Assembly (NCBI GenBank): GCA_030622955.1
Contig: JAUXFM010000001.1
Location: forward strand, 4,185 to 68,184
Length of the DNA stretch: 64,000 nucleotides
Source: Lentisphaerales bacterium
GTDB lineage: Bacteria > Verrucomicrobiota > Kiritimatiellia > JAUXFM01
Direction of reading: 5' to 3'
The translations under genes were made by a program, and so were the position numbers. This document shows positions 10,858-17,562 of this stretch, in pieces; the stretch's first letter is position 1; each line of letters starts with the position of its first letter. The notes beneath the pieces are model-generated. The model searched no databases. It was given only the letters and a program-made list of their open reading frames with translations, and had not been told where the DNA came from.

Positions 10858-11730
10858 TTATTCAGTACTGCTATGCCGAAGCGCTTCAACACCACCAATG
10901 ACATCAAGCAGTTCAGCGGTTATGCTGTCCTGGCGCACAGACTGGTATTGCCCTGTGAGCCTGAGAAGCCGCTCCTCAATGTTACTGCCTGCCGATGTCA
11001 TGGAAAGAAGACGCGCGCCGTTCTCACTGCAATGACTCTCAACAAGAGCACGGTACAACTCTATGAAAAAATACTCCTCAATGAACGATCCGATCAGCTC
11101 CTCAGGCGGAGCCGTCAGTAGCGGCTCACTACGAAAGGCATCTGCTCTGCCCTCATTGAGCATGTCCCTTGTCGGTGGCAACACGCGCCGCACGTTCTCA
11201 CGAAATCGGCCCATGCCATCATACGCATTGTAAACGAAGTGCAGTTCAACGCTGCCAAGTTCTACGTATTTCTCGAAGACCTGGGCAGCAAGTTCAGGAA
11301 TTTGTATCTTGATGCCCTCTAATCCAGTTGGTGACGGAGCCGACAGAACCGGCTCAATGTCACGCATGGCCAGGATTTCAGAACCGCGTCGACCAATCAC
11401 AATGAAATCGACCTCGCCATCGGTTTCTTTCTCGAAAGCCAATGCGGCCTGGACAACACGTTCGTTGTATGTGCCACACAACCCCTGGTCACTCGCAAAG
11501 ACAAGAGCCATGCGCCGCCCTTCGGTCGCCAGGCCTGCCCTCATGACATCAGACCTATTAAGCAGAACACCCAGACAGGTTTCAACCACTTCACTGCAGG
11601 GTCGAATGGCAGCAAGCGCCGACTCTGCCCGGCGTACGTAAATGGCGGCGAGATTGCGCATGGCGTTAACGATCTCGCCCAGCTTCTTGACGCTGTCCAG
11701 CGTGCGCTGTAATTCCCGCAGTTCAGCCAT
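10858..11730 (-). CDS. atpG: ATP synthase gamma subunit (N-ATPase operon)
   Basis: Gamma-subunit hallmarks: N-terminus 'MAELRELQRTLDSVKKLGEIVNAMRNLAA' and C-terminus 'ITAELLDVIGGVEAL'. Confidence 0.9.
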   Translation of the reverse strand: MAELRELQRTLDSVKKLGEIVNAMRNLAAIYVRRAESALAAIRPCSEVVETCLGVLLNRSDVMRAGLATEGRRMALVFASDQGLCGTYNERVVQAALAFEKETDGEVDFIVIGRRGSEILAMRDIEPVLSAPSPTGLEGIKIQIPELAAQVFEKYVELGSVELHFVYNAYDGMGRFRENVRRVLPPTRDMLNEGRADAFRSEPLLTAPPEELIGSFIEEYFFIELYRALVESHCSENGARLLSMTSAGSNIEERLLRLTGQYQSVRQDSITAELLDVIGGVEALRHSSTE

Positions 11731-11732
11731 GT

Positions 11733-13247
11733 CTATCCCTTGAACCGGGCTCTCACGCCCTCCGCGAACGAGTCAATGGCCGATGCATCCGCAACTGCGA
11801 GTTTCTCGCCGGCCTCAATTCGAGCCAGCAATTCCGACAGTTGTTCTGGGGCCTCCCGGCGCAAGCTCTGTTCAAAAGCACGCACCTGTTCGACATCCAG
11901 TTCGTTCAGAATGTCGCTGGAAGCTATCTTAAGGATCACCACCTGCAAAGCAAGAGAGATCGGATCATTCGCAAGCTGCTTGAGGATTTCTCTCAACCGC
12001 TTCCCCTTTTCCAGGGCTGCTCGGGTATCTTCTTCCAGCGTTGTGCCGAACTTCGTGAACTGCTCAAGTTCAAGGAACTGGGTATAGGTCAACCGCAGTT
12101 GCTGGGCAAGACTCTTCATGGCAGGAATCTGCGTCTTGCTGCCAACACGACTGACGCTCAACCCGATATCTACTGCCGGCAAGAAACCCGATTGATAAAG
12201 CTCTGGGCTGAGATAGACCTGGCCATCAGTTATCGAGATCAGGTTAGTGGGTATATAAGCAGAAATGTTCTGCGCCTGCGTCTCAATGATCGGCAGAGCC
12301 GTCTGAGATCCCCCGCCATGCTTCTCGTCAAGCTGTGTTGCGCGCTCCAGCAGGCGAGAATGAATGAAAAATACATCGCCTGGATAGGCTTCACGGCCGG
12401 GTGGCCTTCTCATTAGAAGACTGAGCTCACGATAGGTTTGCGCGTGTTTCGTCAGGTCATCGTACACAACAAGGGTGTCACGACCCTGCTCCATGAAGAA
12501 CTCGCTTATCGTGCAACCGGCGTAGGGCGTGATGAATTGCAGCCCGGGGGATGAGTCGGCGTCGGCTACAACAACCACTGTATGGTCCATGGCGCCGCAT
12601 TCGCGCAGGGTTTTAATGATGCGGGCAACCGATGATGCTCTCTGACCGACCGACACGTAAACGCAAATCACACCCGTCTTCGCCTGGTTAATAATCGCAT
12701 CAATCGCAATAGTAGTCTTCCCCGTGCTACGATCGCCGATTATCAGTTGTCTCTGGCCACAGCCGATAGGAATCAAGGAATCGACGGATTTCAGACCCGT
12801 CGACAGCGGCTTCACGACGGGAGAGCGGGCAAGAATCGCAGGTGCTTCTTTCTCGATCGGATCGTAGCGTTCAGCTGCTACGGGGGAACCCCCATCGAGA
12901 GGATTGCCCAGCGGGTCAATAACACGTCCCACAAGGTTGTCGCCCACCGGCGTACGTGCAACTTCCCCCGTACATTCAACAGTCTCACCGGCCATGATAT
13001 CCGTATCATCGCCGAGCAGGACACAGCCGATCTCGTCTTCGTCGACATTGAACGCCATGCCGGTGACAACGTGAGAGAAACGTATCAGCTCAAGCGACCT
13101 GGCGCTCGGCAATCCCGAGATCCTGGCAATTCCGTCACCTGCACTGACTATTCTGCCGATCTCGCTGGTACGTGGTTCAACAGGAGCCGCGGCCGCGGAT
13201 TTCTCCAGGCTCGCCAGGGCCTGCCGGCTTGTTTCAAGAATACTCAC
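11733..13247 (-). CDS. atpA: ATP synthase alpha subunit (N-ATPase operon)
   Basis: Walker A 'GDRSTGKTTIA', and the product is 504 aa. Confidence 0.95.
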   Translation of the reverse strand: MSILETSRQALASLEKSAAAAPVEPRTSEIGRIVSAGDGIARISGLPSARSLELIRFSHVVTGMAFNVDEDEIGCVLLGDDTDIMAGETVECTGEVARTPVGDNLVGRVIDPLGNPLDGGSPVAAERYDPIEKEAPAILARSPVVKPLSTGLKSVDSLIPIGCGQRQLIIGDRSTGKTTIAIDAIINQAKTGVICVYVSVGQRASSVARIIKTLRECGAMDHTVVVVADADSSPGLQFITPYAGCTISEFFMEQGRDTLVVYDDLTKHAQTYRELSLLMRRPPGREAYPGDVFFIHSRLLERATQLDEKHGGGSQTALPIIETQAQNISAYIPTNLISITDGQVYLSPELYQSGFLPAVDIGLSVSRVGSKTQIPAMKSLAQQLRLTYTQFLELEQFTKFGTTLEEDTRAALEKGKRLREILKQLANDPISLALQVVILKIASSDILNELDVEQVRAFEQSLRREAPEQLSELLARIEAGEKLAVADASAIDSFAEGVRARFKG

Positions 13248-15381: not shown

Positions 15382-15677
15382 ATCTTCTCCTTAATCATCC
15401 GCCAGGCTGTGATGCAACCTATAATGACCCCCACAAGCAAAAAAAAGACCGTGAAGATCTGCGCGGAATCTAATCGGCCATCAAGCCATCTGCCCAGCAA
15501 CACTCCCAGGGCAGCAGGAACAGAAATGGACCATCCGACTGTCCCGGCCATGCCGACAGATCGCCAGAACGAGGAATCACCATCTCGCACATGCTCTTCG
15601 TGCCGTTCCCGTCTGCGCTGGACCTCTGCCAAAAATGCATCCCTTCCTCTTCCGCGCTCTGCCTTCTCCGCAGTCAT
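15378..15677 (-). CDS. atpQ: N-ATPase accessory protein AtpQ (AtpI/AtpZ-like)
   Basis: 99 aa 2-TM protein located between atpC and atpR. Confidence 0.65.
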   Translation of the reverse strand: MTAEKAERGRGRDAFLAEVQRRRERHEEHVRDGDSSFWRSVGMAGTVGWSISVPAALGVLLGRWLDGRLDSAQIFTVFFLLVGVIIGCITAWRMIKEKI

Positions 15678-16069
15678 TGCACCTTCGCCTTATCATATTC
15701 AATCACGCCACGCATGAAGCTGACGCGAAGCTTTTCGAAAGCGACCCGGTCAGTCTGGTCTTCACGAGTTTCTTTTTCGAAACCTGCAATAACACTGCTT
15801 TCCAGGTGATGGCGATCGTTGCCTGCAACGGCCTGGCGAGAGACTATCTCTACCCTGTCGCCGGCAACCAGCATTACTCCACCATTAACTGCAACAAACT
15901 TCTCCTGCCCGCTGCTGCTCCTCGCTTGGACGACACCCGGAACCAGCGGGGTCACCAGTGCGGCATGGCCCGGTCGAATACCAAGCGATCCCGTAGGATC
16001 CTCTGCCGTGACGTGGGTAACGTCCTGTTCCAGGATGACTTCCGTAGGTGTCAGAACACGCAGTTTCAT
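15674..16069 (-). CDS. atpC: ATP synthase epsilon subunit
   Basis: N-terminus '[20 protein letters not shown]...' is typical epsilon, 131 aa. Confidence 0.85.
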
Positions 16070-17562
16070 GATGTCTTCTTCTCGTCAGGCTCCGCCTTCT
16101 CTTCCGGATCCTCGTCTTCCTTCTCAGGATCTCCCAACTTGCGCGCCTCATCGATACCACCAATCATGTAAAGAGCCGATTCTGAGACATCATCGAATTC
16201 ACCTGCCAGTATGGCTTCGCAACCGGTCAACGTTTCTTCTATCGGTACTGACCTGCCGGGCTTACCCGTGAACTGCTCTGTCACGAAAAAAGGCTGCGTC
16301 ATGAACCGGATAAGTCTCCGCGCCCTTCGTACGATTCGCTGATCGTCTGCCGACAGCTCTTCGAGCCCAAGCATGCTTATGATGTCTTCAAGGCTTCGAT
16401 AATGAGCAATGGCCTCACGAACCTGCCTTGCCACTTTGTAATGGCGCTCGCCGATAGTCTCGGGATTGAGCAGCTTACTGTTGGAATCCAGTGGATCCAC
16501 TGCCGGGTAAAGACCGTTACTCGCCATTTGACGGCTGAGCGTTATGGACGAATCGAGATGAGAGAACGTTGCCGCTGCGGCGGGATCCGTGAAATCGTCG
16601 GCAGGCACATATACCGCCTGGATCGAAGTGATGGCCGCACGATGTGTCGAAGCGATACGCTCCTGTAGGTCGGCCACTTCACTGGCAAGTGTCGGCTGGT
16701 AACCAACGCGTGAGGGCATACGCCCGAGCAGGCCGGAAACCTCTGACCCGGCCTGAACGAAACGAAAAACATTGTCGATAAGCAGCAGGACATTCTTGCC
16801 CTGCTCATCCCTAAAATGCTCCGCGATAGTAAGAGCAGATAACGGTATGCGGAATCGGGCACCCGGAGCCTCGTTCATCTGTCCAAATACGAGAACGGTC
16901 TTGTCCAGCACGCCCGCCCCAGACATCTCCCGCCAAAGATCGTTGCCCTCACGTGATCGTTCTCCGACACCGGCGAAGACAGAGTAGCCCGCATAATTGT
17001 CAGCCGTGTTCCGAATCAACTCCATGATCAAAACGGTTTTACCGACACCTGCCCCGCCAAACATTCCGGCCTTGCCGCCCTTTGCAAGTGGCGCCAAAAG
17101 GTCTACGACTTTCATGCCCGTCGCGAACACTTCATTATCCGTGAGCTGGTCGACAATGTCAGGGCCCTTGGCATGTATAGGCTTGCGCTGGACCTCACCG
17201 GACGAGCCGGCACTGCAGATATCGCCAGCGTCGTCAGAGGCATCACCCGTCACGTTCAGGATGCGACCGAGCACAGCATCGCCGACCGGCACGGTGATAG
17301 CCTGGCCCGTTGCACGTACCGGCGTCAGTCGCGCCAGTCCAGCAGTAAAGCTCATGGCAATAGCCCGCACACGAGTGCTGGAAAGATGCAACTGGACTTC
17401 GGCAACGATCCTGCCGACAGGGCCATCAATGTGGAGGGCCTCATGAATACCGGGCAGGCGGTCTGGAAACTCCATGTCTATGACCGACCCACGTATGCCG
17501 GTAACGTGACCCATCATACGTTCGGATTCGATCTGATCGGTAGATGTCTTCATGCTCATCAT
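16066..17562 (-). CDS. atpD: ATP synthase beta subunit
   Basis: Walker A '[15 protein letters not shown]' and 'DELSADD'. The product has an acidic C-terminal extension. The ORF extends to 17598, and the start is chosen at an internal Met. Confidence 0.9.

Follow-up and report, generated by a model that had tools for sequence, protein, structure and literature searches.

What kind of rotary ATPase is encoded by an operon that begins with the gene for the beta subunit, ends with that for gamma and lacks a gene for delta? Such an operon lies on the minus strand of a 64,000-nucleotide (nt) stretch of contig JAUXFM010000001.1 (assembly GCA_030622955.1), which was analysed as a whole and is called the window below. 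Could it be the housekeeping ATP synthase of its host in an unusual order, or is it one of the N-ATPases, also known as N1No-type rotary ATPases, 'alternate F1F0 ATPases' or Methanosarcina-type F-ATPases? This family was defined in 2010 by Dibrova, Galperin and Mulkidjanian, together with its proposed role in Na+ export (PMC2881411). An earlier, sequence-only reading of the window had opted for an N-type enzyme with a Na+-binding c subunit, and had taken a tRNA-Glu gene upstream of the operon for a sign of acquisition. Judged by the genes it contains, by their order and motifs and by where they fall among related families, the locus is indeed an N-type operon. We consider it likely that it encodes a complete, apparently functional N1No enzyme, whose most probable task would be the ATP-driven export of Na+ beside another rotary enzyme; which ion it couples to, in which direction it runs and whether such a partner exists are matters of inference.

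Gene content, gene order and family placement

The operon consists of nine intact, tightly packed open reading frames (ORFs) at about 10858-17580 in the ORF map of the window, and profile models of Pfam and NCBIfam identify all nine products. Taken together, the ORF map and the identities given by these hidden Markov models (HMMs) yield the order beta-epsilon-AtpQ-AtpR-a-c-b-alpha-gamma (atpD-C-Q-R-B-E-F-A-G). Adjacent genes overlap by 4-8 nt at five junctions and are separated by 2-24 nt at the remaining three, so that the genes are probably translationally coupled and no space is left in the operon for a delta gene. Neither atpH nor the canonical order atp(I)BEFHAGDC, as seen in E. coli and other F-type loci, was found in the operon.

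To which family do the individual subunits belong? For eight of the nine, an NCBIfam model linked to N-ATPases outscores the generic F-type TIGR equivalog (six 'alternate F1F0' models plus those of AtpQ and AtpR), while gamma ties. The 'alternate' model leads the generic one by 661.7 (TIGR03305, the best match) to 651.3 bits in beta, by 693.9 (TIGR03324) to 640.2 (TIGR00962) in alpha, by 95.7 (TIGR03166) to 68.5 (TIGR01216) in epsilon, by 192 (TIGR03306) to 142 in the a subunit, by 106 to 48.6 in c and by 108 to 67.6 in b.

Comparison with characterized operons points in the same direction. The E. coli F1Fo enzyme has homologous alpha, beta, gamma, epsilon, a, b and c subunits and the same rotary mechanism, but differs from the window in having atpI, atpH (delta), a b subunit of 156 amino acids (aa) and the order atpIBEFHAGDC, and in lacking AtpQ and AtpR. 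In contrast, the N-ATPase operon of plasmid pAQ7 of Synechococcus PCC 7002 shows the same atpD-C-Q-R-B-E-F-A-G order as the window. This operon and that of plasmid pREB4 of Acaryochloris marina, both named by Dibrova et al. in 2010 (PMC2881411), represent a type that shares with the window the pair AtpQ and AtpR, the absence of a delta gene, a long b subunit whose C-terminus resembles delta and a c subunit with two glutamates and the motif ESTxxY, a motif that most N-ATPases have. Alpha and beta of the window are 54% and 58% identical to their pAQ7 counterparts, and the alignments of c and a with N-ATPase sequences, which the sequence-only reading had named as a check, agree with its proposal (63% and 40% identity to pAQ7); the corresponding values against the E. 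coli F-type enzyme are 45% for alpha, 53% for beta, 22% for c and 27% for a. AtpQ is 38% identical to AtpQ of pAQ7 and finds no BLASTP match in E. coli AtpI, and AtpR is too divergent from its pAQ7 counterpart for detection by BLASTP. The operon of the window is chromosomal, whereas those of pAQ7 and pREB4 are plasmid-borne.

Relatives were collected by a scan of one genome per species, which returned 80 loci with alpha identities of at most 71%. The closest of these belongs to a metagenome-assembled genome (MAG) of Kiritimatiellia (alpha 71%, beta 78%, c 87%), followed by four Brocadiia/Planctomycetota MAGs with alpha identities of 63-69%; remoter N-type operons occur in Desulfobacterales, Methylobacter, Syntrophomonadaceae, cyanobacteria, Acidobacteriota and others. 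Synteny of the whole operon extends over MAGs of Kiritimatiellia and Brocadiia and over metagenome contigs, the closest of which show 73-91% identity, and the order D-C-Q-R-B-E-F-A-G is kept in every related locus that spans the full operon, L001, L002, L004, L005 and L081-L085 included. A lineage with 85-87% identity is also present in the protein database; to it belongs the closest relative, L084, whose nine subunits are all 77-91% identical to those of the window.

We then placed the operon in a joint neighbour-joining tree of alpha and beta, in which each paralog roots the other (200 bootstrap replicates). The N-type references were Synechococcus PCC 7002 pAQ7, Acaryochloris marina pREB4, Legionella anisa and Cereibacter sphaeroides; E. 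coli, Neisseria, Sinorhizobium, Fusobacterium, Enterococcus and Prevotella served as the six F-type references. The latter group together without the window in 196 of 200 replicates for alpha and in 200 of 200 for beta, and the tree thus firmly excludes membership of the F-type group. The window is placed among N-type sequences that include pAQ7 and pREB4, within a Kiritimatiellia/Brocadiia subclade (bootstrap 173/200 and 198/200) in which the sequences of the two groups are interleaved. ORF map, HMM identities, synteny with pAQ7 and tree together bear out the N-type operon and the gene order that had been proposed from the sequence.

Who is the host? The seryl-tRNA synthetase encoded in the window has no match above 67% besides itself, and its top matches that carry an organism name are all Kiritimatiellae/Kiritimatiellia or 'Verrucomicrobia bacterium', which indicates a Kiritimatiellia-like host without a close sequenced relative. 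A 239-aa ORF at 18999-19718 on the minus strand shows a partial match (68 bits, cut-off 750) to the Amuc_1098 family of Akkermansia type IV pilus outer-membrane proteins, which is consistent with a host from Verrucomicrobiota or, more widely, the Planctomycetes-Verrucomicrobia-Chlamydiae (PVC) group.

The beta gene, atpD(N) (16066..17562 or 16066..17580; PF00006), carries the P-loop GGAGVGKT from residue 169 and the catalytic segment GERSREG from residue 200. Its ORF opens at TTG 17598, and ATG 17553, ATG 17562 and GTG 17580 are all candidate starts. An identical public protein starts at 17553 (495 aa); in the alignment with the closest homologue, GTG 17580 falls on the start annotated there (VLFFQRM in the window, MLFFNHM in L084), and the residues between GTG 17580 and the downstream ATGs are conserved. 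The coordinates reported earlier therefore stand for all nine ORFs, except that the beta start at 17562 is ambiguous and may have to move to 17553 or to GTG 17580. Epsilon, encoded by atpC(N) (15674..16069, 131 aa; PF02823 at 80 bits, TIGR03166), overlaps beta by 4 nt. As had been noted before, two small membrane proteins lie between epsilon and a: AtpQ (15378..15677, 99 aa; TIGR02230 at 72.7 bits against a cut-off of 46.7, PF09527 ATPase_gene1 at 56.5) and AtpR (15055..15381, 108 aa; PF12966 at 31.4 bits, cut-off 26), a membrane protein that marks N-ATPases.

The a subunit, encoded by atpB(N) (14313..15062, 249 aa; PF00119 at 166.8 bits), has its stator arginine, R160 (14583-14585), in the segment LAIRLFGN, as aligned to the a subunits of chloroplasts and Bacillus PS3. 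The c subunit gene atpE(N) (14030..14320; Pfam ATP-synt_C) encodes 96 aa from an ATG upstream of which the mechanical ORF already opens at a TTG. The b subunit, the product of atpF(N) (13244..14005; PF00430 and PF00213 OSCP, with TIGR03321 as top NCBIfam match), is long, at 253 aa versus 156 aa in E. coli. Its residues 169-239 (13289-13501) match the delta family (OSCP, PF00213) at 36.7 bits with a cut-off of 22.3, and its C-terminus is 31% identical to E. coli delta over 67 aa (E=4e-4). The long b subunit and the missing delta gene both stand as first described. Alpha, encoded by atpA(N) (11733..13247, 504 aa, GTG start; Pfam ATP-synt_ab), carries GDRSTGKT, and gamma, from atpG(N) (10858..11730, 290 aa; PF00231 at 188 bits), matches TIGR03323 and TIGR01146 equally well at about 147-148 bits; an identical gamma sequence, like the identical public beta, is recorded at NCBI for an 81,336-bp contig. 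A promoter and terminator scan returned sites no commoner than in shuffled sequence.

The ion site of the c subunit

Which ion does the c ring carry? Across both helices, the c subunit aligns without gaps with those of Ilyobacter tartaricus (1YCE) and Fusobacterium nucleatum (3ZK1). Residues Q32/V63/E65/S66/T67/Y70 of the former and E32/V63/E65/S66/T67/Y70 of the F. nucleatum c11 ring correspond to E46/M77/E79/S80/T81/Y84 of the window, with E46 encoded at 14183-14185 and E79-S80-T81...Y84 at 14069-14086. The segment 'VESTAIY' (residues 78-84), singled out earlier for its E-S-T-x-x-Y constellation, hence places the Na+ ligands at equivalent positions, and the glutamate suspected at the position of Ilyobacter Gln32 is Glu46. 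Of the 76 aligned c sequences (74 related loci, the window and the I. tartaricus reference), 37 show the motif E-M-E-S-T-Y and 27 Q-M-E-S-T-Y. E. coli c is without these ligands.

The window thus matches the F. nucleatum ring at all six positions of the Na+ site, M77 through its backbone only. In the crystal of that ring, Na+ is held by Glu32, the carbonyl of Val63, Glu65, Ser66 and a water held by Thr67, while Tyr70 stabilises Glu65 and Glu32 remains protonated (PMC3692424). The Fusobacterium enzyme makes ATP from a Na+ gradient (PMC3692424); its residue 63 is Val where the window has Met, and, unlike the enzyme of the window, it is a canonical F-type ATPase with a delta subunit and normal gene order that falls into the F-type clade of our tree. 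Guided by this solved ring and by the rule on ligands of Mulkidjanian and Meier, as cited in PMC2881411, we regard Na+ as the probable coupling ion of the window's enzyme.

How might such an enzyme work? The alpha3-beta3 head, with its intact P-loops and catalytic Glu, would hydrolyse ATP and turn the gamma/epsilon shaft together with the c ring. Each c subunit would carry one Na+ between adjacent hairpins, with Glu79, Ser80, the backbone carbonyl of residue 77 and Glu46 of helix 1 as ligands, together with a water that Thr81 holds; by analogy with the Fusobacterium ring, Glu46 is expected to remain protonated and Tyr84 to lock Glu79. Half-channels in subunit a would let the ions in and out, past Arg160, and the stator presumably consists of the single long b subunit with its delta-like C-terminus.

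AtpQ and AtpR would act as accessory membrane proteins. Two arginines of AtpR, R54 (15220-15222) and R89 (15115-15117), are conserved in 93% and 97%, respectively, of 58 sequences (that of the window and those of 57 related loci, in which the ORF that separates atpQ from atpB was taken). Dibrova et al. described both arginines as embedded in the membrane and proposed that they pair with the two glutamates of the c subunit during ring assembly (PMC2881411).

The N-type ATPase of B. pseudomallei resembles that of the window in family and operon type, in the second Glu in helix 1 of c and in the stator Arg of a. Its ring contains 17 c subunits, a size that cannot be transferred to the protein of the window from sequence; nor does the Gly/Ala motif of helix 1 suffice to derive its ring stoichiometry.

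Direction of operation and the partner enzyme

Would the enzyme pump ions or make ATP? We lean towards an ATP-driven exporter rather than a synthase, because N-ATPases are always accompanied by another ATP synthase, because their deletion in Methanosarcina remained without a phenotype and because their hosts are marine or halotolerant. Its most likely role would then be Na+ export driven by ATP for salt or ion homeostasis, in a marine or saline anaerobic Kiritimatiellia-like bacterium. In pREB4 of Acaryochloris marina (L093), a cation:proton antiporter gene (2935-4164) is inserted between atpQ and atpR, a single-gene insertion also noted by Dibrova et al. (PMC2881411), which fits a role of the family in ion homeostasis.

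What could be the partner? According to Dibrova et al., an N-ATPase is always additional to an F- or A/V-type rotary enzyme (PMC2881411), and the ProAD survey lists N-ATPases beside A-type enzymes in several phyla (PMC11738941). For Kiritimatiella glycovorans, a cultured member of the class, an Rnf complex and a V-type ATP synthase have been reported (PMC5148204). On the example of this one cultured relative, the partner enzyme of the window's host, if there is one, could be of V/A-type rather than F-type.

A second putative ion pump lies 10.7 kb from the operon. The 720-aa membrane-bound pyrophosphatase at 28241-30403 on the plus strand (PF03030, 911 bits) is named 'sodium-translocating pyrophosphatase' by its NCBIfam model (NF001960, 948 bits, cut-off 546). 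An alanine in its sequence motif is the mark of the K+-dependent class, and in its transmembrane helix 6 the coupling Glu sits one turn earlier than in the Vigna H+-pyrophosphatase, whose helix reads GSDLFGSYAES. In Na+-pumping pyrophosphatases such as that of Thermotoga maritima, the Glu occupies this earlier position. A pyrophosphatase of the Na+ type and an N-ATPase in one window suggest a membrane economy that may be based on Na+.

Several points weigh against the reading of the locus as an N-type Na+ exporter. Every 'alternate F1F0' score stays below its curated NCBIfam cut-off, and the AtpR model TIGR03165 reaches 21.2 with a cut-off of 55.5. The sequences of the PVC subclade thus differ from the seed N-ATPases, and the window stands apart from the reference N-ATPases both by these scores and by its place in a separate subclade of Kiritimatiellia and Brocadiia/Planctomycetota MAGs. 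For one clade that unites the N-type sequences, bootstrap support is 36-42% even after removal of the long-branch Cereibacter sequence, so that the tree by itself is no proof of it. Ion specificity and operating direction are read from the letters of the genes, and the pumping role has thin experimental support even for the family at large (PMC2881411, PMC5376962). Finally, the sole biochemically studied N-type c-ring, that of B. pseudomallei, is H+-specific despite its helix-1 Glu (PMC5376962).

Might the window, then, encode a proton pump? An N-ATPase coupled to H+, like the c17 enzyme of B. pseudomallei, would pump protons for pH homeostasis, and such enzymes are predicted to be common: ProAD assigns 893 of the 1,807 N-ATPases in GTDB r202 to the H+-type and 914 to the Na+-specific one (PMC11738941). 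The B. pseudomallei site, however, reads Glu61-Thr62-Met63...Tyr66, with Thr-Met after the key Glu where the window has Ser-Thr (PMC5376962). The Ser/Thr pair is thus missing from the Burkholderia ring. The window combines the full E-S-T-x-x-Y motif with Glu46 and agrees position by position with the F. nucleatum ring, in whose crystal Na+ is bound, and we regard H+ coupling as unlikely.

Alternatively, the enzyme could be the main or only rotary ATPase of its host and run in reverse, as a Na+-driven ATP synthase of a fermenting anaerobe that is fed by a Na+ gradient from Rnf, the pyrophosphatase or decarboxylases. There is precedent in the Chloroflexota genus T78, in which an N-ATPase is the sole rotary enzyme (PMC11738941); the 64-kb window holds no other rotary ATPase, and the Na+-type pyrophosphatase is close by. 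Yet a window of this size is hardly informative about the remainder of the genome, an N-ATPase is nearly always found beside an F- or A-type enzyme (PMC2881411, PMC11738941), and K. glycovorans is reported to combine Rnf with a V-type ATP synthase (PMC5148204). We therefore hold this reversal to be improbable. A slightly smaller chance still falls to its strictest form, in which the N-type enzyme would be the only rotary ATPase of a deep-branching Kiritimatiellia lineage and make ATP by means of a Na+ cycle in which the nearby pyrophosphatase takes part; if true, this would break the rule by which an N-ATPase is never the ATP synthase of a cell.

Chromosomal setting, acquisition and annotation

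Did the operon arrive in this chromosome recently? A tRNA-Glu(UUC) gene at 17853-17928 on the minus strand (ARAGORN; Rfam RF00005, 56 bits) lies about 275 nt upstream of the operon and on its strand, with a G9 run (17778-17786) between the two; close to the tRNA, on its upstream side, there is a T7 run (17978-17984). The tRNA and the homopolymer tracts on which the sequence-only reading had built its case for acquisition are thus present. The T7 run is the tail of a terminator-like hairpin of 19 pairs that, together with it, occupies 17978-18026 on the minus strand, directly upstream of the tRNA. On the plus strand, a 270-aa ORF at 17921-18733 has several hydrophobic, probably membrane-spanning segments and matches neither Pfam nor NCBIfam models. 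As the mechanical start of this ORF reaches 8 nt into the opposite-strand tRNA, its real start probably lies further downstream. Besides the tRNA, no riboswitch or other Rfam element was found.

An operon carried by a recently integrated genomic island, with the tRNA-Glu as attachment site, would be in keeping with the habits of the family: N-ATPase operons are laterally mobile as a unit, are sometimes plasmid-borne and have a GC content adapted to the host (PMC2881411), and 116 plasmid records match N-ATPase. The flanks, moreover, differ in every relative, and a tblastn search with 18 flanking ORFs of the window against all fetched related loci found no shared neighbours. The operon lies beside a sigma-54 activator and flotillin/PspA genes in L082 and beside an adenylate cyclase in L085. 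In L084, TsaD and phospholipase D genes stand upstream, and the downstream region (11753-16455) contains the toxin-antitoxin pairs HipA/HipB, BrnT/BrnA and YoeB/YefM and an IS1595-family transposase. This stretch of L084 looks like a mobile or accessory neighbourhood, of a kind that is absent from the window.

At the locus itself, the evidence speaks against such an island. No integrase or recombinase was found between or near the tRNA-Glu and the operon in the window, no att-like direct repeat derived from the tRNA was found downstream, and in each of nine related loci the operon stands without an adjacent tRNA. A GC content of 0.543 in the operon compares with 0.536 +/- 0.018 in the 33 other genes of the window, and a GC content at third codon positions of 0.584 with 0.608 +/- 0.033; in synonymous-codon usage, 17% of random blocks of genes of about the same size are at least as distant from the pooled neighbours as the operon is. 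In composition, too, the operon is therefore typical of the genes around it, and the tRNA-Glu with its homopolymers fails as a sign of acquisition. The window is otherwise ordinary chromosome, with serS, tilS, ftsH, folP, cdaA, ftsK, a MiaB-like gene, two-component systems and a TonB receptor; the operon itself is flanked by the tRNA-Glu and a URO-D-like gene. Three paralogous PQQ/BamB-like beta-propellers (53545-54909 and 55291-56574 on the plus strand, 60737-62032 on the minus strand) have a TonB-dependent receptor and an FtsX/ABC transporter pair in their vicinity. Lateral mobility is visible here only in the non-conserved flanks and in the mixed Kiritimatiellia/Brocadiia subclade. A recent insertion at this locus is unsupported and an old one plausible; that the operon is island cargo attached at the tRNA-Glu seems to us very improbable.

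The weakest alternative takes the public names of the homologues at their word and sees in the locus a common housekeeping F1Fo ATP synthase whose genes stand in an unusual order. We reject it as virtually without a chance: although beta and alpha exceed the generic atpD and atpA equivalog cut-offs and fall under the 'alternate' ones, there is neither a delta gene nor AtpI, AtpR is present, the order is D-C-Q-R-B-E-F-A-G and not I-B-E-F-H-A-G-D-C, the F-type clade excludes the window at 98-100% bootstrap, and c is far closer to the N-type c of pAQ7 than to that of E. coli.

How does an N-type operon come to bear an F-type name? Homologues of its products are entered in public records as plain 'F0F1 ATP synthase' subunits, and with 'alternate' scores below the cut-offs, annotation pipelines would give the proteins of the window the same name. 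The Kiritimatiellia/Brocadiia subclade of N-ATPases (the window, L001, L002, L004, L005 and L081-L085) is a systematic blind spot of annotation.

What does the operon add to the picture of its family and host? It is a clean example of a long-known and widely catalogued kind of operon, and its importance is modest: it raises no mechanistic question beyond those already attached to N-ATPases, namely ion specificity, direction and the roles of AtpQ and AtpR. Kiritimatiellia are poorly cultured anaerobic degraders of polysaccharides from marine and saline settings, and we know of no specific discussion of an N-ATPase in this lineage, to which the window adds a well-supported one. The 'F0F1' naming of the subclade could mislead metabolic reconstructions of these bacteria into assuming oxidative or F-type ATP synthesis.

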